Part shown: piece by piece, positions 4,891 to 34,294 of the stretch
Layout: each line of letters starts with the position of its first letter
Numbering within the stretch: the stretch's first letter is position 1
Source of the DNA: a virus
IMG/VR virus record: IMGVR_UViG_3300020048_000026
Location: 32,001 to 96,000 of that record
Length of the DNA: 64,000 nucleotides
Strand: one strand, 5' to 3'
Position numbers and translations under genes: made by a program
Notes under the pieces: model-generated
What the model saw: only the letters and a program-made list of their open reading frames with translations
Database searches by the model: none
Told to the model about the DNA's origin: nothing

Positions 4891-7173
4891 ATGGCAATTA
4901 TTCGTATAAGAGATTTAGAAACAGAAGCAACTTTAACAGGTGAAAATTATATACCAATAGATAGAGATGATTATTACACTAACGCTAAAAAACTTTCTTT
5001 ATCAAATTTCAATAATTATATTACTGGTATTACATATAGTTTCTCATCAGGATTAACTTCAGGAACAGATGGTACATCAGGTAGTTCAGGTAGTTCAGGA
5101 ACTAATGGAACCTCTGGTAGTTCAGGTAGTTCAGGTCAAGATGGTACTAATTTTGGAACTTCAGGCTCATCAGGCTCATCAGGCTTTGGTATTAATGGAA
5201 CCTCTGGTAGTTCAGGTAGTTCAGGTATTAGTGTTGCTGGTACTGATGGAACTTCTGGCTCATCAGGTAGTTCAGGAATAGGTGTTGCTGGTACCTCAGG
5301 CTCATCTGGAACCAATGGAACCTCTGGTAGTTCAGGTATTAGTATTGCTGGAACCTCTGGTAGTTCAGGTATTAGTGTTTCTGGTACTGATGGAACTTCA
5401 GGTACAAATGGCACTTCGGGAGTTGGAACTAATGGAACCGATGGAACCTCTGGTAGTTCAGGTACGTCAGGTGTTGGTGGTAGTGGTACTGATGGAACCT
5501 CTGGTAGTTCAGGCTCATCAGGTATTGGTGGTGGTACAGATGGAACCTCAGGAACCAATGGAACCTCAGGAACCAATGGAACCTCAGGTAGTTCAGGTAT
5601 TAATGGAACCTCAGGAAGTTCAGGAATTAATGGAACCTCTGGTAGTTCAGGAATTAATGGAACCTCAGGTAGTTCAGGAACTAACGGAACCTCAGGAAGT
5701 TCAGGAACCAGCGGTGGAGGTCTTCAAGAATTTCCTTTCTATGTTGTAGTATCTGGTGAAACATATTTATCTACACCTCAACCAATAAATTCTGGTGGTA
5801 CGATTGTTTTTAATCAGTTAAGTGGTATTTATATAAGTACTGGTTTAACATCACAAGGATTCTTAGAATTAAATTTATCAGCATCACAAGGTTTAGATGA
5901 ATGGGTTGTTGTAAATGTTCCTGAGTTAGATGCTGCTTGGGCAGAATCTATGGCAAGTACAAGATATGGTAGAATTTGGTGTGTTGGTACAGGATTTACT
6001 TGGACACAAAATACTGATTATATAATAATGCCTTCTGGTAATACAGGTGCACATAAAATTGAAATCGTTGGCTTACCTGAGGCAACATTTAATGTTGATA
6101 CATTTACTGTTAGATTTGGTGATGGGTTTTTAAGTAATATTATTTGGCGAACAAATACCACTAATTATATAACTTCATATAATGGTAGATTAAAATTAGT
6201 AAATAATTATTTTATTGATGATATATCAGGTACAACAAGTGGTACACAAAGGATTCATATAAATATAGATGGTTATGTAAGAGATAATACAGGGTTAATT
6301 GATATAGATGGAATTATGCATTATACTCAAAATTATACTTGGAATAACACAGAGATTATACAACCAATTAGAATTCATAATACAGAGAATAGTCCAGTAG
6401 CATTTGATAATTTATATGTAAATATAAGAGGTGTTGATACTGTTAGTTCATTTGAAAGATTTAACAGAGTTAGATTAAGCGCTTCTGTAGGTACAGATTT
6501 TAAGGTTTCAGGAGATGAGACATGGTTTTTTTCTCCTCAACAAGAATTGCCAGGTACTGGTAATATTGATGCTACTTCAGAAATTTTAAAAACATCATCA
6601 ATTGATAGAGTTCGTGGTGAAAGAATTCCAACAGGTACTACATCTTTAACAAAATATGTTATGTTAGATACTGATAATTATTTAAAAATAGTTACTTTAA
6701 CTGGTGGTACAGGTGGAGGTACATCAGGAACTAACGGTACATCAGGTAGTTCAGGATCATCAGGAATCAATGGCACCTCAGGCTCATCAGGTATTAATGG
6801 TACCTCAGGTTCATCAGGAACCAATGGTACCTCAGGTTCAAGTGGCATCTCACCATCAATATTTACTTGGTCGCTTGATACGCCAGAAGTTGATGGAATA
6901 CCAGGACCTAGATTATATCATAATATGAGAGTTCAAAGGGTTGATTCTTATTGTGTATCATTATCTTCTGTTACATTTACTGTTTCATATAAGAGTACAC
7001 CAACAGGTTCAACAACATATATTTATTCTGGTGTTACAAATACAACACAAGGAGATTCATCAGGTGCGATATCTGAAAGTGTATCGGCAGATAATTGGTT
7101 ATGGTTAGATATTAATAGTATTCAAGGTGCGCCTGATAAATTGGTCGTCTCACTTGCTTTAATATATACGTAA
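4891..7173 (+). CDS. Tail-fibre-like protein 1 with Gly-X-X (GTS/GSS/GTN) repeats
   Basis: 760 aa; two low-complexity Gly-every-third-residue tracts; N-terminus shared with 7886-11161. Confidence 0.65.
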   Translation: MAIIRIRDLETEATLTGENYIPIDRDDYYTNAKKLSLSNFNNYITGITYSFSSGLTSGTDGTSGSSGSSGTNGTSGSSGSSGQDGTNFGTSGSSGSSGFGINGTSGSSGSSGISVAGTDGTSGSSGSSGIGVAGTSGSSGTNGTSGSSGISIAGTSGSSGISVSGTDGTSGTNGTSGVGTNGTDGTSGSSGTSGVGGSGTDGTSGSSGSSGIGGGTDGTSGTNGTSGTNGTSGSSGINGTSGSSGINGTSGSSGINGTSGSSGTNGTSGSSGTSGGGLQEFPFYVVVSGETYLSTPQPINSGGTIVFNQLSGIYISTGLTSQGFLELNLSASQGLDEWVVVNVPELDAAWAESMASTRYGRIWCVGTGFTWTQNTDYIIMPSGNTGAHKIEIVGLPEATFNVDTFTVRFGDGFLSNIIWRTNTTNYITSYNGRLKLVNNYFIDDISGTTSGTQRIHINIDGYVRDNTGLIDIDGIMHYTQNYTWNNTEIIQPIRIHNTENSPVAFDNLYVNIRGVDTVSSFERFNRVRLSASVGTDFKVSGDETWFFSPQQELPGTGNIDATSEILKTSSIDRVRGERIPTGTTSLTKYVMLDTDNYLKIVTLTGGTGGGTSGTNGTSGSSGSSGINGTSGSSGINGTSGSSGTNGTSGSSGISPSIFTWSLDTPEVDGIPGPRLYHNMRVQRVDSYCVSLSSVTFTVSYKSTPTGSTTYIYSGVTNTTQGDSSGAISESVSADNWLWLDINSIQGAPDKLVVSLALIYT

Positions 7174-24940: not shown

Positions 24941-24944
24941 CTTG

Positions 24945-25017
24945 CCCTAAGTGTAGGACTTGAACCTACGACCAACTATTTTAGAGATAGCTGCTCTACC
25001 AACTGAGCTAACAAAGG
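24945..25017 (-). tRNA. Amber suppressor tRNA (anticodon CUA) 1
   Basis: Cloverleaf; anticodon arm GCTAT-CTCTAAA-ATAGT; T-arm GTAGG-TTCAAGT-CCTAC; acceptor CCTTTGT/ACTTAGG with two U-U mismatches; G73. Confidence 0.85.
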
Positions 25018-25023
25018 ATTTTG

Positions 25024-25096
25024 AGATCCAGGTGGGGATCGAACCCACGACCAACTATTTTAGAGATAGCTTCTCTACCAACTGAGATACAAGATC
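25024..25096 (-). tRNA. Amber suppressor tRNA (anticodon CUA) 2
   Basis: Cloverleaf; identical anticodon arm; acceptor GATCTTG/CTGGATC with one U-U mismatch; U73. Confidence 0.88.
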
Positions 25097-26627: not shown

Positions 26628-26967
26628 TAAATATATTGTATTCCTTTAACATTAAAGGTAAAGATGAGGTAAGCCTACGAGTTTTATCAGAAGGCTCAAT
26701 AGCAATCGCAGTAATCTGATTCCTAATATCAGGTTCACGAAAAACGACAAATTTTAAATGATTTTTTTCCAATTTTGAAATGAGAGAATATAATTCTTCT
26801 TCATTTTCTACAGAAAGCTGTGCTAAATAAGGGTCGTTGTACCAATAATTGGAAATTTGGTGATGTTCAACGAAAAACATAATCGCAGCATGGGTTGCTT
26901 GCGTTGCCTGATATCCAGGACTTAAATCTCTTCTTGTTACTGTTGTTAATTTGTTAACCTACGTCAT
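26578..26967 (-). CDS. Peptidyl-tRNA hydrolase (Pth2-like) with in-frame TAG at codon 3
   Basis: ATG ACG TAG then in-frame VNKLTTVTRRDLSPGYQATQATHAA joined to the 100-aa ORF containing FREPDIRNQITAIAIEP; both are Pth2-family motifs. Confidence 0.8.
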
Positions 26968-27017
26968 GATTTCTAAATTGTTTTTAATGTATATATTAAT
27001 TTTTGTGTTTTGTTTTA

Positions 27018-27025
27018 CAAATGTA
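27018..27025 (-). promoter_or_regulatory. TAnnTTTG promoter box
   Basis: TACATTTG upstream of the Pth-like gene. Confidence 0.55.
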
Positions 27026-27063
27026 TGGAACTTTTTTAATAAAAAAAATTTTAAAAAATTAAT

Positions 27064-27280
27064 TATCTCATAGCCGCGATCTTGTTTCTAATCTCACATT
27101 TATCTAAGTCTTTCAACTTCCTTTCCAACGAAAGGTGCTCCAACCCGACCTCACAGGGAAACCGACACCCTCAGTCTGTTTGGATTGCTACTTGTGTGGT
27201 GATAACGAATTTCTTCTCCCACAGTAGGTTTTGTAGTCGCGAACTTCCTCTAATATTTCTACCAGCGTAAGATCGAATAA
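27064..27280 (-). ncRNA. rnpB: Minimal RNase P RNA
   Basis: GAGGAAGTTCGCGAC (CR-I-like), AGATAAATG (CR-IV-like), ACAAGATCGCGGCTAT (CR-V-like); P4 pairing GTTCGCGA/TCGCGGC with bulged U; GC-rich intergenic island. Confidence 0.8.
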
Positions 27281-27287
27281 TTAATTT

Positions 27288-27701
27288 TTAAAATTCAGGT
27301 TCGTTATAAATAACTTTTGCTTTTGCATCTTTTTTTACACCATTTTTGAAATAATATCTACTTGGATCATCACCAAATCCATTATCCCAATCAATATCCA
27401 ATTGAAAAACTAAAGTTGGATATTTTTTTGAAAATTCTTTAATATCATCTTCAATTTTATAGCCACTACCTGGCTCATTTGAATTACCATCAGAATTTAG
27501 TAAATATGAACAATCATCACTTGTGTCTAAAAGTTCATCTATGATTGTGTTGCTTGATACAATCATATCAATTTCATCTGAAGGTGAACCACATTTTGAA
27601 CAAAATTGACCATTGATTTGTGTTTTACAATTTGGACAAAATGGTACTTTATTTGTAATTTCACCAATAATTTTTAATTTAAAGTAATTTTCGTAACTCA
27701 T
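27288..27701 (-). CDS. Zinc-ribbon hypothetical protein
   Basis: CPNC...CSKCG. Confidence 0.65.
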   Translation of the reverse strand: MSYENYFKLKIIGEITNKVPFCPNCKTQINGQFCSKCGSPSDEIDMIVSSNTIIDELLDTSDDCSYLLNSDGNSNEPGSGYKIEDDIKEFSKKYPTLVFQLDIDWDNGFGDDPSRYYFKNGVKKDAKAKVIYNEPEF

Positions 27702-28350: not shown

Positions 28351-28611
28351 CTATTTCAAATTTTTTTGTGTAATAGGTTCATTACATTTAGGACATTTTA
28401 TATATCCCATACCCGATTCAGTTACAGACAAATAATCAAATGTATGCTTACACTTTGGACAAATAACAAGATTTCCTATCCTATCAAGAACTTTTTGTTT
28501 TTCATCATCTGTCATTCTCTTCCATTTAGCAATTTCTTTTCCAGTTCGTTTACAACCTTTACAAACTCCATCTACTAAACCACATTTATCTACACAAGGA
28601 CTCTTTATCAT
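28351..28611 (-). CDS. DUF1289-like Cys-rich protein fused to zinc ribbon
   Basis: SPCVDKC...CKGCKRTGKEIAKW plus CPKC...CPKC. Confidence 0.7.
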   Translation of the reverse strand: MIKSPCVDKCGLVDGVCKGCKRTGKEIAKWKRMTDDEKQKVLDRIGNLVICPKCKHTFDYLSVTESGMGYIKCPKCNEPITQKNLK

Positions 28612-29150
28612 AACGATTTATTATTAATTTTTAAATATTTCAAAGGTACACTATCAGTTAACCAAACACCATTTTCACTCAAGTAAAATTTATAACCATC
28701 AGTATTCATTGCAGCTGAGTCAACTTCCAATATAATTGGAGCATTTCTTTTAGAATACCTTTTTCCTACACTATATGCAACTTCAATATCATCAGTTAAA
28801 TGTACATGAAGCCTTCTCATTTTTTCTAAACCCTTACCCCTAATAATCTTTTCATAACTATCAGGACTTGTACCATGATAAAGTACCCTTGGAGGTCTAA
28901 TCGCCTTTAATCCAACATCAACCTTAACCGAATGACCCTGAGATGCGCGAATTTTAGACTTATCCTGATTATAAGCCAATCTTTTCTTATCATTCGTATC
29001 TACAATATGATTCAATTCTTCCTGTGTTATACCAACCTTATTTAAAAGTGATTTAACATCAACATACCCACTAGTATCCATTATTAAATCCTCTGAATTG
29101 TGCCTTAATAGATAAGTTATCTTCTTTCCTATTTGTATATAATCTTTCAT
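28608..29150 (-). CDS. kptA: RNA 2'-phosphotransferase (Tpt1/KptA)
   Basis: LLRH, DKKR, IRASQGHS, LYHGT, RLHVHL, NGVWL motifs. Confidence 0.95.
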   Translation of the reverse strand: MKDYIQIGKKITYLLRHNSEDLIMDTSGYVDVKSLLNKVGITQEELNHIVDTNDKKRLAYNQDKSKIRASQGHSVKVDVGLKAIRPPRVLYHGTSPDSYEKIIRGKGLEKMRRLHVHLTDDIEVAYSVGKRYSKRNAPIILEVDSAAMNTDGYKFYLSENGVWLTDSVPLKYLKINNKSL

Positions 29151-29607: not shown

Positions 29608-30032
29608 TATTTTCCTTTTAATTTTTCTAATTTTTTCCTTCTCTGTTCCTTAATCGGATCCTCCATTTTAATTTTTTCAAAATCCGCACTCTCTGAATAA
29701 TATCCATTAGACGAACCATACCAACGAATTGTTACATAACCTTTTACAGTTGCTAATTTATAAAAAGTCCAAGTTGCTGATTCATCATAACCATCATCTG
29801 TTTTTGTTGCATCCTGAGTTGATTCTTCTGCCTGTAAAATACGACTTCCAATTAAATCATCTAAATCACCTTCAATATCTTCAATATACACATTTTCACA
29901 GCAATCTTGTGAATGATACATTTTATATTCTGCACCATTCGCAAGATAAAAATAGACAAATTCATCATTAATTCTTTCAATTTTAATGATGAATTTATTC
30001 AATAAGTCACTAATATTAACATGTTCCCTCAT
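29607..30032 (-). CDS. Conserved phage hypothetical protein (YHxQDCCE type)
   Basis: MYHSQDCCENV and RWYGSSNGYYS; RRKKLEKL tail. Confidence 0.75.
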   Translation of the reverse strand: MREHVNISDLLNKFIIKIERINDEFVYFYLANGAEYKMYHSQDCCENVYIEDIEGDLDDLIGSRILQAEESTQDATKTDDGYDESATWTFYKLATVKGYVTIRWYGSSNGYYSESADFEKIKMEDPIKEQRRKKLEKLKGK

Positions 30033-30553
30033 TATTCAAATTTAATTTTTAATCCCATATTCTGCATTGCTAATAATGCTTCTGCATTTCCCTTAGCATC
30101 ATTCACAGGATTATGATCATGAGTTGTTTTTCTTAACTTTTTCCAACTTGACCTTGAATCCATCTTCATACCACAATATAAATCACCTATCCTACGACTT
30201 GACCATCCAAAAGGATTAACTCCTCCATTAAACTCTTGAAAATAAAGATTAATCCAACCTGCATCATATCCATTATTATCCGATATTAAAATAGGCTGAC
30301 CAATTGATACCGATTTAATCCACTCCGCAAATTCTTTCATAACCTTAACTGGTTCATCAAAAGTTTCATGCTCCTCCCTTGAAAATCCACTAATCGCAAG
30401 AGCCTCCGGAACCCAAATACCAGATATCGGTCTTACTTTACCATAAAACGTTTTACTTAAACTAGGCTCCACCACAACCGCTCCAAAACAAACCATTGAG
30501 TGCCTTAAAAAATTCTGTCCATCTGACTCTACATCTACTACTATAAAACTCAT
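30032..30553 (-). CDS. DEDDh 3'-5' exonuclease
   Basis: VVDVESDG, NNGYD, HNPVNDA motifs. Confidence 0.85.
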   Translation of the reverse strand: MSFIVVDVESDGQNFLRHSMVCFGAVVVEPSLSKTFYGKVRPISGIWVPEALAISGFSREEHETFDEPVKVMKEFAEWIKSVSIGQPILISDNNGYDAGWINLYFQEFNGGVNPFGWSSRRIGDLYCGMKMDSRSSWKKLRKTTHDHNPVNDAKGNAEALLAMQNMGLKIKFE

Positions 30554-31507: not shown

Positions 31508-31598
31508 TGGCGGAGAGTGTAGGATTCGAACCTACGGGACCCTTACGAGTCCTACAGTTTTCAAGACTGTCGCGATAGACCAACTCTGCCAACTCTCC
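31508..31598 (-). tRNA. tRNA-Ser(UGA)
   Basis: ACAGT-CTTGAAA-ACTGT, long variable arm, G73, encoded CCA. Confidence 0.95.
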
Positions 31599-31631: not shown

Positions 31632-32261
31632 TTAAATTAATATTAACCTATCTACACCAATCGCAAACCCAATTCCTCCATCATAACTACCACCACCACA
31701 AATTTGTTTCTGCGCACCCAATTTATCACAAGATATTTCAAATCCTTTTCCATCCTTATAGTAATCTAACCCCCTCTTCACATCTGTATTTATATCAAAA
31801 TCTGGTGTTACTAATTCAATTATTTTACTAGATATTTCTATAAGTTCATCTAAATAGTCCTTATTTGGATTCAAAATTTCAACTCCAAATTGTGTAAATT
31901 CCCTATATCTTCCTGCTTGTGGTGATTCACCTCTAAAACATTCTCCAATGTAAAATAATTTTACGTTTTTTTGATATTTTAATTTTTCCTTCGCTATTAA
32001 TTGAACAACAGCCGTATATTCAGGTGCTAAACATATATCACGATTACCAGCATCAGTAAATTTATACATCATATTCCTATTTTCCTCTCCAACCTTGGAT
32101 TGAAAAATTTCAGAATTTTGTATAATTGGTATCATAATTTCTTGATAACCATAAGAATACATAATATCAATCATTTTATTGATTAAATCTCTTTTGTATT
32201 TTGCTGTTTCATTAAAAAGAATCCTAGTTCCTTTATATGTATTTTTAAGTTTTATTTCCAT
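31632..32261 (-). CDS. hisS: Histidyl-tRNA synthetase-like protein, catalytic core only
   Basis: Motif 2 FRGESPQAGRYREFTQFGVE, RGLDYY, GGGSYDG, motif 3 GFAIGVDRL; ends right after motif 3. Confidence 0.85.
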   Translation of the reverse strand: MEIKLKNTYKGTRILFNETAKYKRDLINKMIDIMYSYGYQEIMIPIIQNSEIFQSKVGEENRNMMYKFTDAGNRDICLAPEYTAVVQLIAKEKLKYQKNVKLFYIGECFRGESPQAGRYREFTQFGVEILNPNKDYLDELIEISSKIIELVTPDFDINTDVKRGLDYYKDGKGFEISCDKLGAQKQICGGGSYDGGIGFAIGVDRLILI

Positions 32262-32292: not shown

Positions 32293-32366
32293 TAGGTTTG
32301 GTGGGACTCGAACCCACACAGCATTGATTAAGAGTCAATTTCAATATCCAGTTATGATACAAACCC
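32293..32366 (-). tRNA. tRNA-Lys(CUU)
   Basis: ATTGA-CTCTTAA-TCAAT; T-arm GTGGG-TTCGAGT-CCCAC; A73. Confidence 0.85.
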
Positions 32367-32370
32367 AATT

Positions 32371-32456
32371 TGGCACGAAAAGTAGGATTCGAACCCACGA
32401 ACTCTTACGAGATTTGTTTTGGAGACAAACGCCTTTGACCGCTCGGCAATTTTCGT
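32371..32456 (-). tRNA. tRNA-Trp(CCA) with long variable arm
   Basis: TTTGT-CTCCAAA-ACAAA; variable arm CTC-GTAA-GAG; A1-U72, G73, CCA. Confidence 0.85.
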
Positions 32457-32503
32457 ATTTAAAGATGTGCCTGTGTTAATTACATCACACATCTTAATAT
32501 TTT

Positions 32504-32740
32504 TTAGTTAAGTTGAATTAACTTATCATTATCTATTGCTTTTCTTATCCAACGCATAAGTTCAATACTTCTCATTTCTGGTAAAAAATATACATTTGCA
32601 AATTCTACATGATCAGTAGTGTCCATTTCTAATTGATATAATGTACCTTCAACTTGAATTATGTAATATACAACTCCGTTACATACATATGACATTTTAG
32701 CCATTGTTCCTTTTACGATTTCTTTTAAAGTGTGTTTCAT
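32504..32740 (-). CDS. Hypothetical protein within tRNA cluster
   Basis: 78-aa ORF. Confidence 0.65.
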   Translation of the reverse strand: MKHTLKEIVKGTMAKMSYVCNGVVYYIIQVEGTLYQLEMDTTDHVEFANVYFLPEMRSIELMRWIRKAIDNDKLIQLN

Positions 32741-32870
32741 TTTATTTATTATTTTTATTGTTTCTAAATAAGATAGTTTTTTTCAAAATAAACTGGACAT
32801 TTTTCATTTTGAAAAGTTTATGTGAGTAAGAAAAGGATAACTATCACCTATTGATGAAAATTATACTAAG

Positions 32871-32959
32871 TGGCGGAAAAAGAGGGGCTCGAACCCTCGC
32901 ACCGATAACGATCTATACGCTTTCCAAGCGTACCCCTTCACCAACTTGGGTATTTTTCC
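32871..32959 (-). tRNA. tRNA-Ser(GGA)
   Basis: TACGC-TTGGAAA-GCGTA, long variable arm, CCA. Confidence 0.93.
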
Positions 32960-32964
32960 ATTTG

Positions 32965-33037
32965 TGACCCGAAACGGATTTGAACCGCTGACGCAAAGAT
33001 CTTCAATCTTTCGCTCTACCAACTGAGCTACCAGGTC
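32965..33037 (-). tRNA. tRNA-Phe(GAA)
   Basis: AAAGA-TTGAAGA-TCTTT; canonical D and T arms. Confidence 0.93.
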
Positions 33038-33063
33038 AAAATTGTGGAATAAATCCACATTTG

Positions 33064-33137
33064 TGGTACCGACAGGCGTTGACCCTGTATTTTTGGCTTT
33101 TCAGACCAACACTCTTACACACTTGAGTTACGGCACC
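33064..33137 (-). tRNA. tRNA-Phe(GAA), atypical D/T loops
   Basis: TTGGT-CTGAAAA-GCCAA; T-loop GTCAACG; D-loop lacks GG; stems intact. Confidence 0.75.
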
Positions 33138-33143
33138 TTGTTG

Positions 33144-33228
33144 CGGGGAAGATTGGATTCGAACCAAAGAAGTTCTTTGCTGTAAATAATCTTTTCAGAA
33201 TATTCTCTCACCGTGAGAGATTTTCCCC
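33144..33228 (-). ncRNA. tRNA-like RNA A (ACAGCAA motif stem in anticodon-arm position)
   Basis: GGGGAA/TTCCCC acceptor, 7-bp D-like hairpin, AATATTCT-GAAA-AGATTATT-TACAGCAAA, TTGG-TTCGAAT-CCAA T-arm. Confidence 0.6.
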
Positions 33229-33241
33229 ATTTTATTTGTTG

Positions 33242-33316
33242 GGTGCTATGTCGGATTTGAACCGACGACCACTTGAACCACAATCAAGCATTCTAACCAA
33301 CTGAACTAATAGCACC
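33242..33316 (-). tRNA. tRNA-His(GUG), canonical with G-1
   Basis: CTTGA-TTGTGGT-TCAAG; G-1 and C73. Confidence 0.93.
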
Positions 33317-33321
33317 ATTTG

Positions 33322-33409
33322 GGTGTTAGACGGGACTCGAACCCGCAAGGAGTTTAACCTCTCCAGAGTCACAATCTGGCCCGATAACCTATTTACGGAC
33401 TACTAACAC
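33322..33409 (-). tRNA. tRNA-His(GUG) with long variable arm, no encoded G-1
   Basis: CCAGA-TTGTGAC-TCTGG; variable region AGAGGTTAAACTCCTT; C73; base at -1 is T. Confidence 0.82.
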
Positions 33410-33411
33410 AG

Positions 33412-33502
33412 CGGAAGTTGAGGGGCTCGAACCCTCGCGACGTTTTTCAGACGACCTATCAGTTTAGCAAACTGACCCCTTCACCAACTTGGGTAAACTT
33501 CC
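33412..33502 (-). tRNA. tRNA-Ser(GCU)
   Basis: TCAGT-TTGCTAA-ACTGA, long variable arm, G73. Confidence 0.93.
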
Positions 33503-33508
33503 ATTTTG

Positions 33509-33595
33509 CGGAGACAGACGGAGTTGAACCATCACATCAATTCTCATTGATTTCACCGTTTTCGAGGCGGCTAACTACACCAAATAGGTGTCTCC
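33509..33595 (-). tRNA. tRNA-Ser(CGA), atypical D-arm
   Basis: GCCGC-CTCGAAA-ACGGT; variable arm ATCAAT-GAGA-ATTGAT; C at position 8. Confidence 0.8.
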
Positions 33596-33600
33596 AAAAT

Positions 33601-33680
33601 CAGAATACTTTTTTGGATACGAACCAAGTGAACAAATTTCAAGTTTGTTTTTTTACCTTTGATTTTGCTGTAAGTATTCT
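33601..33680 (-). ncRNA. tRNA-like RNA B (ACAGCAA motif stem in acceptor position)
   Basis: AGAATACT-TACAGCAAA...ACAAA-CTTGAAA-TTTGT...TTGG-TTCGTAT-CCAA...AGTATTCTG. Confidence 0.6.
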
Positions 33681-33681
33681 T

Positions 33682-33771
33682 TGGCGGAAGATAAGGGAAT
33701 CGAACCCTTACACCGGCTCTCACCGATATCACTGTTTTCAAGGCAGCTTACCTCACGCAATGGGATCTTCC
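33682..33771 (-). tRNA. tRNA-Ser(UGA), atypical D-arm
   Basis: GCTGC-CTTGAAA-ACAGT; long variable arm; C8; CCA. Confidence 0.82.
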
Positions 33772-33778
33772 AAAGATG

Positions 33779-33860
33779 CACGCCCAAAAGGATTCGAACC
33801 TTTAACCACGCTTACGCATTACCGGGTTGGAACCGGCTGGTCACTCCAATGAGTGGACGC
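33779..33860 (-). tRNA. tRNA-Trp(CCA), long variable arm and atypical D-arm
   Basis: GCCGG-TTCCAAC-CCGGT; variable arm ATGC-GTAA-GCGT; C8; G73. Confidence 0.78.
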
Positions 33861-33876
33861 ATTTATTAATTTTTTG

Positions 33877-33960
33877 TGACCCCTATGGGACTCGAACCCA
33901 TGACTCCCTGATTAAAAGTCAGGTACTCTTCGCTTTCGCTACCAACTGAGTTAAGAGGTC
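33877..33960 (-). tRNA. tRNA-Lys(UUU) with D-loop insertion
   Basis: CCTGA-CTTTTAA-TCAGG; extra GC-GAAA-GC in the D-loop. Confidence 0.88.
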
Positions 33961-33965
33961 ATTAG

Positions 33966-34052
33966 TACGCCCGAAGGGAATCGAACCCTTGTACAACTTT
34001 CGTATCCCAGATTAAAAGTCTGGTGCCTCACGCCTATCTCGGCCACGGACGC
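33966..34052 (-). tRNA. tRNA-Lys(UUU) with long variable arm
   Basis: CCAGA-CTTTTAA-TCTGG; variable region GATACGAAAGTTGTAC; A73. Confidence 0.85.
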
Positions 34053-34139: not shown

Positions 34140-34179
34140 AAAACAAAAAAATCCGAACTTTTTTATGGTTCGGATTTTT
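34140..34179 (-). terminator. Attenuator terminator upstream of tRNA array
   Basis: AAAAATCCGAAC-CATAAAAAA-GTTCGGATTTTT followed by TTGTTTT. Confidence 0.85.
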
Positions 34180-34204: not shown

Positions 34205-34294
34205 TTACATCAAATAAGGCATAATAGTCTCCGAACCTTGGCTATGTGACCAAAATTTAAAGGATTTACTACTATGTTTCTTAACTAATGCCAT
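34205..34294 (-). CDS. Leader peptide MALVKKHSSKSFKFWSHSQGSETIMPYLM
   Basis: 29 codons; codons 5-18 are only K/H/S/F/W; contains GGTTCGGA complementary to the terminator 5' arm. Confidence 0.85.
   Translation of the reverse strand: MALVKKHSSKSFKFWSHSQGSETIMPYLM

Follow-up and report, generated by a model that had tools for sequence, protein, structure and literature searches.

We propose, with a probability of about one half, that the tRNA operon of this huge phage encodes a working set of cognate-charged backup tRNAs that would be induced on tRNA shortage, and that the rebuilt bodies of these tRNAs perhaps shield them from nucleases. As reconstructed from sequence, a leader and terminator switch would open once the pools of charged tRNA for Lys, His, Ser, Phe, or Trp are depleted, and the rebuilt isodecoders would then supply the codons of these five amino acids as a backup set. 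Their protruding hairpins and remodelled elbow would make them poor substrates for nucleases that read the tRNA body plus the anticodon (whether from host defences or a phage enzyme for host shutoff), so that decoding would continue after the host tRNAs have been cleaved. The operon runs from 34052 to 32293 on the minus strand of the 64,000-nt stretch that we analysed (the window) and contains 14 tRNA genes and two tRNA-like elements. The isotypes are Lys, Trp, His, Ser, and Phe, and every tRNA is on the minus strand. The tRNAs were called with ARAGORN and with Rfam RF00005, which were concordant for most genes, and the stems of all of the array genes are paired.

In the textbook view, long variable arms in bacteria are confined to the tRNAs for Ser, Leu, Tyr, and Sec. 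An earlier note on this DNA reported such arms on both tRNA-Trp(CCA), one tRNA-His(GUG), and one tRNA-Lys(UUU), and we find them on all four, with variable regions of 13–17 nt and stems of 3–5 bp; class II architecture calls for at least 10 nt that fold into a stem-loop. The long-armed tRNA-Lys(UUU) (Lys-long, 33966-34052; ARAGORN and Rfam) has a 16-nt variable arm on a class II body and A73. One tRNA-Trp(CCA) (32371-32456) also has a class II body, with a 13-nt variable arm (CUC-GUAA-GAG), A1-U72, C2-G71, G73, and an encoded CCA. Both have an enlarged D loop on a 3-bp D stem (GCC/GGC), and 3 bp is also the family consensus. The long-armed tRNA-His(GUG) (His-long, 33322-33409; found by Rfam only, 40.8 bits) has a variable arm of about 17 nt, the acceptor stem GUG.../...CAC, C73, and U at position −1. 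The five-arm cloverleaf is the minimum-free-energy fold of Lys-long, Trp-long, and His-long.

The other tRNA-Trp(CCA) (33779-33860), with a 17-nt variable arm and G73, departs from the class II D arm: its D stem has 4 bp (UCAU/GUGA), closed by a 4-nt loop and followed by the linker CCA. As had been noted, it has C8 and a non-canonical D arm in common with two tRNA-Ser, namely Ser(UGA) at 33682-33771 (8-bp variable arm capped by GAGA, G73, encoded CCA) and Ser(CGA) at 33509-33595 (21-nt variable arm, G73). In this compact D arm, a lone C separates the acceptor and D stems, the D stem has 3–4 bp and a loop of 4–7 nt, and 3 nt link it to the anticodon stem. The two compact-D tRNA-Ser are not tRNA-Sec: the RF01852 scores are 30.8 bits (33771-33686) and 28.6 bits (33596-33509), with a cut-off of 47, and the anticodons, UGA and CGA rather than UCA, are those for Ser codons.

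Two further rebuilt tRNAs that had been described from the sequence are present as stated. The second tRNA-Lys(UUU) (33877-33960) has a short variable loop and A73, and the 3' part of its D loop contains an extra hairpin, GC-GAAA-GC, so that the D arm reads ACUC-AGUUGGUA[GCGAAAGC]GAA-GAGU. Its anticodon loop is the canonical CUUUUAA. ARAGORN instead reported Arg(CCU) at 33960-33876, which is a misfold that requires A33 and a broken D arm. One tRNA-Phe(GAA) (33064-33137; Rfam, 53.4 bits) has A73, a D loop that lacks GG (AAGUGUGUAA), and GUCAACG as its T loop; a tRNA-Phe with an odd T loop (GUUGAAC) also occurs in genome G005. The remaining tRNAs have ordinary shapes: Phe(GAA) at 32965-33037, class II Ser(UGA) at 31508-31598, canonical class II Ser(GCU) at 33412-33502 and Ser(GGA) at 32871-32959 (the latter with an encoded CCA), and near-canonical class I Lys(CUU) at 32293-32366 (all by ARAGORN and Rfam), as well as His(GUG) at 33242-33316, with an encoded G−1 and C73 (Rfam, 66.4 bits). 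The pattern of one near-canonical and one odd copy per anticodon holds for His, Phe, and Ser(UGA) but not for Lys(UUU) or Trp, for which both copies are odd.

The four long-armed and the three compact-D tRNAs have the usual 7/5 acceptor/T fold. Only the two tRNA-like elements deviate from it. The one at 33601-33680 (9/4) has a 9-bp acceptor stem, a 4-bp T stem, a CUUGAAA loop, and an A-rich stretch where the D arm would be. The one at 33144-33228 (8/4-like) has an acceptor stem and a T arm, a 7-bp D stem, and a 7-bp GAAA-capped stem that replaces the anticodon loop; relaxed ARAGORN settings called it Phe(GAA) (33228-33143), and we rejected it as a decoder because the supposed anticodon arm is this capped stem. 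Elsewhere in the window, the "Pyl" labels that ARAGORN gave at 24944-25096 signify merely a CUA anticodon.

The earlier note also took the paired stems as an argument against decay and proposed to look for covariation in related phages. Both points are borne out: in related megaphage contigs, the orthologues retain the stems by compensatory changes, and the large families covary. Compensatory changes are found in the Lys-long orthologues of contigs L102 (92% identity) and L063 (86%), and in the long-armed Lys family (88 sequences) 19 of 20 pairs covary. Orthologues of the compact-D tRNA-Trp in L003, L004, and L136 (86–88%) have compensated acceptor and T stems, the Ser(CGA) orthologue in L026 has compensated anticodon, variable, and T stems, and in the His-long orthologue of L074 (90%) a double change converts the variable stem from GAGG/CUCC to GAAG/UUCC. 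All three variable-arm pairs of the long-armed Trp family covary. In an alignment of 41 long-armed tRNA-Trp, 94.6% of the cells are paired, versus 61.5% after shuffling and 36–44% after sliding, in an alignment that was fitted to the structure of the model, which favours pairing. Even the tRNA-like elements have relatives: an orthologue of 33680-33601 in L069, with a compensated T stem, and a partial orthologue of 33228-33144 in L143. These changes indicate that the variants are selected as folded tRNAs and are not decaying.

A short leader ORF (MALVKKHSSKSFKFWSHSQGSETIMPYLM, 34205-34294, minus strand) precedes the array, and its codons 5–18 and 21 cover all nine array anticodons. It is followed on the same strand by an intrinsic terminator (AUCCGAAC...GUUCGGAU and a U run, 34144-34175), which we recognized by its sequence, its conservation in relatives, and a weak match to Thr_leader. 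The leader peptide (KKHSSKSFKFWSHS) and the terminator are conserved in three phages; the motif SKHS..KSFKFW is found upstream of the arrays in L078 (G005) and twice in L069. Also, a leader segment (GGUUCGGA, 34237-34230) is able to pair with the 5' arm of the terminator and is a candidate antiterminator. Because the leader codons are exactly those that are read by the array, the leader and terminator fit a switch that would open on a shortage of charged tRNA for Lys, His, Ser, Phe, or Trp. The leader-peptide attenuators of trp, his, thr, and pheA likewise begin with a short ORF in which the sensed codons abound, and alternative hairpins and a terminator come after it. In contrast to those systems, the leader here would control a tRNA operon and sense five amino acids together. 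The codon match suggests a tRNA-depletion sensor that can be tested.

The surroundings of the array support the view that the variants belong to a regulated operon with tRNA-handling genes as neighbours. A 209-aa catalytic core of HisRS, without the anticodon-binding domain, is encoded at 31632-32261 on the minus strand, in the same transcription direction (PF13393, 6.4e-25; 25 homologous loci), and a Tpt1 RNA 2'-phosphotransferase (1.5e-42) and an RNase-T-like exonuclease are encoded nearby. By eye, we also saw CR-I-like (GAGGAAGUUCG) and CR-V-like (ACAAGAUCGCGGCUA) motifs of RNase P RNA in 27289-27056. Since these motifs were seen by eye alone and Rfam has no match to RNase P RNA at 26700-27500, the RNase-P-like neighbour is only a lead. 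LysRS and TrpRS are not encoded in the window, so host synthetases must charge the Lys and Trp tRNAs.

Most of the identity elements point to cognate charging. Both tRNA-Lys(UUU) have the bacterial Lys identity (UUU and A73, with a CUUUUAA loop), and both tRNA-Trp have the bacterial Trp identity (CCA and G73), to which 32371-32456 adds the minor element A1-U72; the compact-D copy has G1-U72 and C2-G71. For His-long, the long arm is as the earlier note had it, but there is no encoded G−1. The base at −1 is U, here and in L074, so despite GUG and C73 the His identity set is incomplete. In other phages, 12 of 15 long-armed tRNA-His have G at −1 with C73. More broadly, in a set of 1253 distinct phage tRNAs, the discriminator bases of long-armed tRNAs are those of short-armed tRNAs with the same anticodon (Asn, G in 9/9; Cys, U in 10/10; Gly, U in 3/3; Ile, A in 5/5; Trp, G in 9/10; His, C in 5/6; Lys, A in 75/93), and 69 of 76 members of the Trp-long family have G73. 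As the identity marks match the anticodons, the rebuilt tRNAs are most likely charged by their cognate synthetases, LysRS, TrpRS, and HisRS.

The earlier note had raised the alternative that a long arm plus G73 could let SerRS mischarge the Trp-anticodon tRNAs. In its general form, SerRS, LeuRS, or TyrRS would load the class-II-shaped tRNAs and thereby place Ser, Leu, or Tyr at Trp, Lys, or His codons, either deliberately or as a tolerated error, as with allo-tRNAs and nev-tRNAs. Long arm and G73 do occur together in both tRNA-Trp, but G73 is also a Trp determinant, and Lys-long has A73 and His-long C73. The compact-D architecture is common to the tRNA-Trp and two tRNA-Ser, and a lone change of G35 to C would turn CGA into CCA. 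In two orthologues of this tRNA-Trp (L003 and L004), U73 replaces G73; 14 of 84 tRNA-Ser from phages carry U73, as against none of 34 short-armed tRNA-Trp. The A73 and U35 of Lys-long can also double as Tyr or Leu marks. Against this stands the acceptor stem. The bacterial Ser identity set requires C72 together with G2-C71, and the antideterminants for SerRS include C2-G71 (PMC9976931). Each of the six tRNA-Ser in the window pairs G1 with C72 and G2 with C71, whereas both tRNA-Trp have U72 and C2-G71, which makes mischarging by SerRS unlikely. An acceptor stem that starts with GGA is found in 67 of 84 tRNA-Ser, in 3 of 76 long-armed tRNA-Trp, and in neither tRNA-Trp of the window. Also, the discriminator tracks the anticodon in hundreds of phage tRNAs, the best variable stems are shorter in Lys-long and Trp-long than in tRNA-Ser (about 3.6 versus 5.3 bp), and mistranslation of AAA would be very costly at 26% G+C. 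We therefore disfavour the SerRS proposal and consider mischarging in general to be very unlikely.

The shapes could instead be tuned to tRNA machinery that the phage itself supplies, or be no more than tolerated by it. A minimal RNase-P-like RNA that lacks an elbow-reading domain, the HisRS core, the exonuclease, and Tpt1 might free the tRNAs from some host constraints or make them a semi-private set, with the GNRA-capped hairpins serving as handles for phage factors or being neutral, rather than shields. The CR-I-like and CR-V-like motifs and the presence of the HisRS core and the RNase-T-like exonuclease agree with this. So does a second natural D-loop hairpin, in a tRNA-His with G−1 and C73 of related phage contigs L003, L004, and L037, which in L003 and L004 comes immediately after the mini-HisRS gene. 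Many variable arms are also GNRA-capped (37 of 70 for Trp and 45 of 122 for Lys). This explanation is unlikely, however, given that long-armed Lys and Trp tRNAs also occur in many much smaller phages (contigs of 20–100 kb) and in Caulobacter phages, that Rfam finds no RNase P RNA, and that host synthetases would still be needed. It is improbable, too, that some of the odd copies do not decode and are decoys that soak up nucleases, regulators, or young pseudogenes in the operon. The two tRNA-like elements, which are clearly tRNA-like and lack a normal anticodon or D arm, would suit such roles; the PARIS paper suggests that viral tRNAs, when overexpressed, might act by competition; His-long lacks G−1; and patterns for tRNA-Lys with a D-loop insertion retrieved no orthologue of the D-hairpin tRNA-Lys from IMG/VR or metagenomes. 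(The only metagenome find was a tRNA-Lys of bacterial origin in which CAGTTGGTA is duplicated in tandem, with no hairpin.) Yet the odd tRNAs have canonical 7-nt anticodon loops, with U33 and the base expected at position 37, their identity elements are kept, and compensatory changes preserve their anticodon stems. The match between leader codons and anticodons is also sensible for decoders.

It is plausible, by analogy, that the shape variants may escape tRNA-targeting defences, as the earlier note had proposed. AriB cleaves between positions 40 and 41 and requires U16/U17 of the D loop; it acts on tRNAs for Lys, Thr, and Asn and, to a lesser extent, on tRNA-His. The bacterial Schlafen RorSlfn5 cleaves Lys(UUU) and Phe(GAA), among others. 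The isotypes that are most often long-armed in phages are Cys, Trp, Asn, Lys, His, and Thr, and the AriB targets Lys, Asn, Thr, and His are among them, an overlap that we noticed after the fact. This isotype bias could mirror the tolerance of synthetases for an extra arm and not nuclease attack. Lys-long has U41 where E. coli tRNA-Lys has A41. The D-hairpin tRNA-Lys and Lys(CUU) retain the E. coli AriB site UAAUC/A (the slash marks the cut), so any protection of these two would come from shape alone. A broader idea, possible but doubtful, is that phages armour their tRNAs generally: a hairpin at the hinge of the L (in the variable arm or the 3' part of the D loop), often GNRA-capped, would block nucleases that grip the anticodon stem and D loop while sparing the contacts with synthetase, EF-Tu, and ribosome. 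In this megaphage, the leader would sense the loss of the attacked host tRNAs, and the minimal RNase P RNA and the HisRS core that the phage itself encodes would service the set, giving a self-contained parallel decoding system that is triggered by attack.

The closest precedent for backup tRNAs is the resistant phage tRNAs of the T5 tRNA-Lys type. These are also phage isodecoders of host tRNAs that are cut by defences, with Lys(UUU) as a prime case, and they are normally charged and stand in for the depleted host tRNA, as we propose here. What sets the known resistant tRNAs apart is a handful of base changes in the anticodon stem-loop or D loop, whereas here whole elements are added or rebuilt (variable arm, D-loop hairpin, compact D arm) and resistance is putative. 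Allo-tRNAs and the (8/4) tRNA-Ser and tRNA-His of phage tRNA clusters (Mukai et al. 2017, PMC5389517) are similar in that they are irregular, are encoded in polycistronic clusters that in some cases belong to phages, and have long arms, Sec-like features, and non-Ser anticodons. However, allo-tRNAs have 8/4 or 9/3 acceptor/T stems (a 12-bp branch) and owe their Ser identity to a discriminator that is mostly G73 or U73, while the long-armed and compact-D tRNAs of the window fold as 7/5 with discriminators that fit Lys, Trp, and His. The nev-tRNAs of nematodes (PMC3333845) likewise carry a long arm with a class I-type anticodon (Gly or Ile), but they are charged with leucine against the code, and the identity elements here indicate cognate charging. 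Finally, canonical bacterial class II tRNAs (Ser, Leu, Tyr, and Sec) share the five-arm fold, the 3-bp D stem, the long D loop, and an arm that is often GNRA-capped; the tRNAs here differ from them in having anticodons and discriminators of Lys, Trp, and His and in having shorter variable stems than tRNA-Ser.

Lys, Trp, His, and other tRNAs that have long arms yet keep their own identity marks are present in hundreds of phage contigs. Lys-long was found in more than 117 IMG/VR stretches and Trp-long in at least 120; for long-armed tRNA-His, a strict pattern gave no match and a looser one gave nine. In the open-access literature, we came across no account of phage tRNAs for Lys, Trp, or His with a class II shape. 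If the hairpins protect from tRNA-cutting immunity, they would be a new class of counter-defence and part of the answer to why phages carry tRNAs. These tRNAs are natural ribosome-compatible scaffolds with free hairpin handles, which may be of use in tRNA engineering. An 86-nt tRNA-Trp is annotated in the cultured Caulobacter phage CcrColossus, and such phages bring the question within experimental reach.

The window (about 26% G+C) is phage-like, with a T4-type large terminase and numerous short ORFs, and it matches records of uncultured phages of 630-735 kb. Assembly gave a contig of 154,853 bp, whose tRNAs all fall inside the window. According to ARAGORN and Rfam, a minus-strand array (34052-31508) encodes, in order, Lys(UUU) with a long, class-II-type variable arm (34052-33966); Lys(UUU) with a D-loop hairpin (33960-33877); Trp(CCA) with a compact D arm and a long arm (33860-33779); Ser(UGA) with a compact D arm (33771-33682); a tRNA-like element (33680-33601); Ser(CGA), again with a compact D arm (33595-33509); Ser(GCU); long-armed His(GUG) (33409-33322); canonical His(GUG); a second tRNA-like element (33228-33144); Phe(GAA) with an odd T loop; canonical Phe(GAA); Ser(GGA); a 78-codon ORF (32504-32740) without a match in Pfam or PHROG; a second long-armed Trp(CCA) (32456-32371); Lys(CUU); a HisRS core of 209 aa; and Ser(UGA). 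All of the structural statements of an earlier note, which had described these arms and loops from the sequence alone, were borne out at the coordinates given by the sequence, ARAGORN, Rfam, and folds.

The two tRNA-like RNAs, also on the minus strand, have good acceptor and T arms and lack a normal anticodon or D arm. ACAGCAAA occurs in each of them, and partial orthologues are found in L143 and L069 (L-numbers denote loci fetched from other contigs). An extra "Phe" that relaxed ARAGORN reported at 33228-33143 was rejected as a decoder: its anticodon loop is replaced by a 7-bp stem with a GAAA loop. Outside the array, two class I tRNAs have the amber-reading anticodon CUA (25096-24944, minus strand); their CUCUAAA loops differ from the Trp loop CUCCAAA by one base.

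Judged by comparison with related sequences, the odd tRNAs are real genes under selection. The related contig IMGVR_UViG_3300028859_000009 encodes long-armed Lys, Trp, and His, an odd Phe, a Sec-like Ser, Ser(GCU), and Lys(CUU), in an order that largely matches the window's array. Closer orthologues were found for the long-armed Lys (L102, 92%; L063, 86%), the Trp with a compact D arm (L003, L004, and L136, 86-88%), the long-armed His (L074, 90%), and Ser(CGA) (L026, 80%). The differences are for the most part compensatory: between the long-armed Lys and L102, changes affect three to four pairs of the acceptor and one pair of the anticodon stem, pairs in the T stem and acceptor are changed in the Trp, and in the variable arm of the His, GAGG/CUCC becomes GAAG/UUCC.

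Covariation across related phages, which the earlier note had proposed as a check, extends this to whole families. Searching IMG/VR for tRNA-Lys(UUU) with 20-30 nt from the anticodon loop to the T loop gave at least 117 stretches, and ARAGORN confirmed the long-armed Lys in nearly all fetched loci; among 88 sequences, 19 of the 20 consensus pairs show double changes. The analogous search for Trp yielded at least 120 stretches, and ARAGORN confirmed a long-armed Trp in 71 of the 119 loci read. When 41 Trp sequences were aligned to a covariance model (a fit that itself favors pairing), 94.6% of cells were paired, versus 61.5% after shuffling (0 of 500 shuffles reached 94.6%) and 36-44% with slid partners, and all three variable-arm pairs covary. 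Thus, the claim that these tRNAs are not decaying holds, on both compensatory changes and family-level covariation. There is also a cultured example: the Caulobacter phages CcrColossus and CcrPW have an 86-nt gene, annotated merely as tRNA-Trp, whose alignment spans 94% of the window's copy.

We read the long-armed and rebuilt tRNAs as most likely charged with their cognate amino acids because of their identity elements, their anticodon-matching discriminators (position 73), and variable arms shorter than those of Ser. In bacteria, Lys identity depends on the anticodon and A73; Trp on CCA and G73, with A1-U72 as a minor element; His on the anticodon, C73, and G-1; and Ser on G73, C72, G2-C71, R4-Y69, C11-G24, and a large variable region (PMC9976931). 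The window's long-armed Lys has A73 and UUU. Its long-armed His has C73, GUG, and the acceptor GUG.../...CAC, without G-1 (as a correction, base -1 is U, not G). All six tRNA-Ser have G1-C72 and G2-C71. The earlier note had suggested that SerRS might mischarge the tRNAs with a Trp anticodon; this is disfavored because both have, besides CCA and G73, U72 and C2-G71, and the latter is an antideterminant against SerRS (PMC9976931). The case against mischarging is weakest for the Trp with a compact D arm, which shares its odd architecture with two tRNA-Ser and whose orthologues in L003 and L004 carry U73.

Among 1253 distinct ARAGORN tRNAs from the fetched loci, long-armed tRNAs have the discriminators of short-armed tRNAs with the same anticodon: G for Asn (9/9) and Trp (9/10), U for Cys (10/10) and Gly (3/3), A for Ile (5/5), Met (4/4), and Lys (75/93), and C for His (5/6). 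For comparison, phage tRNA-Ser have G in 62 of 84 and start with GGA in 67 of 84. In larger samples, long-armed Trp have G73 in 69 of 76 and start with GGA in only 3 of 76, and 12 of 15 long-armed His have both G at -1 and C73. The best variable-arm stems are about 3.6 bp in long-armed Lys and Trp versus 5.3 bp in Ser.

The D-loop hairpin may be another way to build a protrusion. Pattern searches of IMG/VR and metagenomes found no orthologue of the Lys that carries it. A cloverleaf scan of all fetched loci did find a second natural case, a tRNA-His(GUG) with G-1 and C73 whose D loop is CAGCGGUGA[GUCUGAAAAGAC]GA, with the hairpin GUC-UGAAAA-GAC (L003, about 6628-6716, plus strand; L004; and L037, 989-1077); in two related contigs it directly follows a mini-HisRS gene. 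Both insertions lie in the 3' part of the D loop. In class II tRNAs, this part packs against the variable-arm base, so by analogy the hairpin should stick out on the side of the molecule where a long variable arm does. In the D loop of a bacterial-type tRNA-Lys (L293, 2909-2993, minus strand), CAGTTGGTA is duplicated in tandem, a case we rejected as unrelated to the phage insertions.

The array may be regulated by attenuation. Upstream of its first tRNA, a 29-codon ORF, MALVKKHSSKSFKFWSHSQGSETIMPYLM (34294-34205, minus strand), is rich in Lys, His, Ser, Phe, and Trp codons, and its codons 5-18 and 21 together cover all nine of the array's anticodons. A strong intrinsic terminator follows (34175-34144, minus strand), and GGUUCGGA within the ORF could pair with the terminator's 5' arm as a possible antiterminator. 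The leader core SKHS..KSFKFW and the same terminator also precede arrays in two other phages (L078, and twice in L069). The logic is that of amino-acid-operon attenuators: stalling at codons for Lys, His, Ser, Phe, or Trp would switch the operon on. Such codon-matched attenuation would make sense only if the array supplies decoders for the leader's codons.

Why the odd shapes? Escape from tRNA-cutting nucleases is plausible, given published findings. Phage tRNAs with small sequence changes can neutralize tRNA-cutting defenses (PMC11464382, PMC10264068). AriB, the tRNA nuclease of PARIS, cleaves between positions 40 and 41 and relies on U16/U17 of the D loop and on additional body contacts; its targets are Lys(UUU), Thr, and Asn and, to a minor extent, His and Pro (PMC12409363). 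A bacterial Schlafen cleaves the anticodon arm of several tRNAs, among them Lys(UUU), Phe(GAA), and phage tRNAs (PMC13056530). A hairpin rising beside positions 44-48 or out of the D loop would stand between the two regions that such nucleases grip. In phage clusters, once the seeding isotype is left out, the proportion of tRNAs with long arms is highest for Cys (0.25), Trp (0.22), Asn (0.20), Lys (0.19), His (0.17), and Thr (0.16) and near zero for Ala and Asp. All three main AriB targets are among these top six, an overlap noticed post hoc, and differences among synthetases in tolerating an extra arm could explain the bias equally well.

The main rival to nuclease escape attributes the shapes to the phage's own minimal enzymes for processing and charging, which would loosen or redirect what constrains the form of a tRNA. 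The HisRS core is transcribed in the direction of the tRNAs, as are a Tpt1/KptA RNA 2'-phosphotransferase (28608-29150, minus strand; PF01885, 1.5e-42) and a weak match to an RNase-T/Rv2179c-like 3'-5' exonuclease (30032-30553, minus strand); the latter two genes hint at RNA repair or tRNA end processing. Also in this direction, GAGGAAGUUCG and ACAAGAUCGCGGCUA (27289-27056, minus strand) look like motifs CR-I and CR-V of RNase P RNA; Rfam gave no match there with E-values up to 1. The two non-decoding tRNA-like elements are likely to serve as decoys or regulators; such roles are less likely for tRNAs whose anticodon loops are canonical.

In function, the nearest analogues are the tRNA variants of T5 and mycobacteriophage. 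Structurally, the closest are allo-tRNAs, (8/4) phage tRNA-Ser and tRNA-His (Mukai et al.), and nematode nev-tRNAs. The window's tRNAs have neither the 8/4 or 9/3 feature that defines allo-tRNAs nor the identity, Ser-type or Leu-type, that allo-tRNAs and nev-tRNAs have. Searches of the open-access literature turned up no account of phage Lys, Trp, or His tRNAs with a class II shape. The window contributes long-armed Trp and His, with covariation at the family level and an example in culture; the D-loop hairpin, a second and recurrent route to a protrusion; the trio of Trp, Ser(UGA), and Ser(CGA) with compact D arms; and several body plans per anticodon, coupled to a codon-matched leader. The converse of the long-armed case also occurs: about 40% (67/166) of tRNA-Leu in phage clusters are class-I-shaped, with a short variable loop and A73 (L015, L017, L023, and others; for example, L017 3126-3500).
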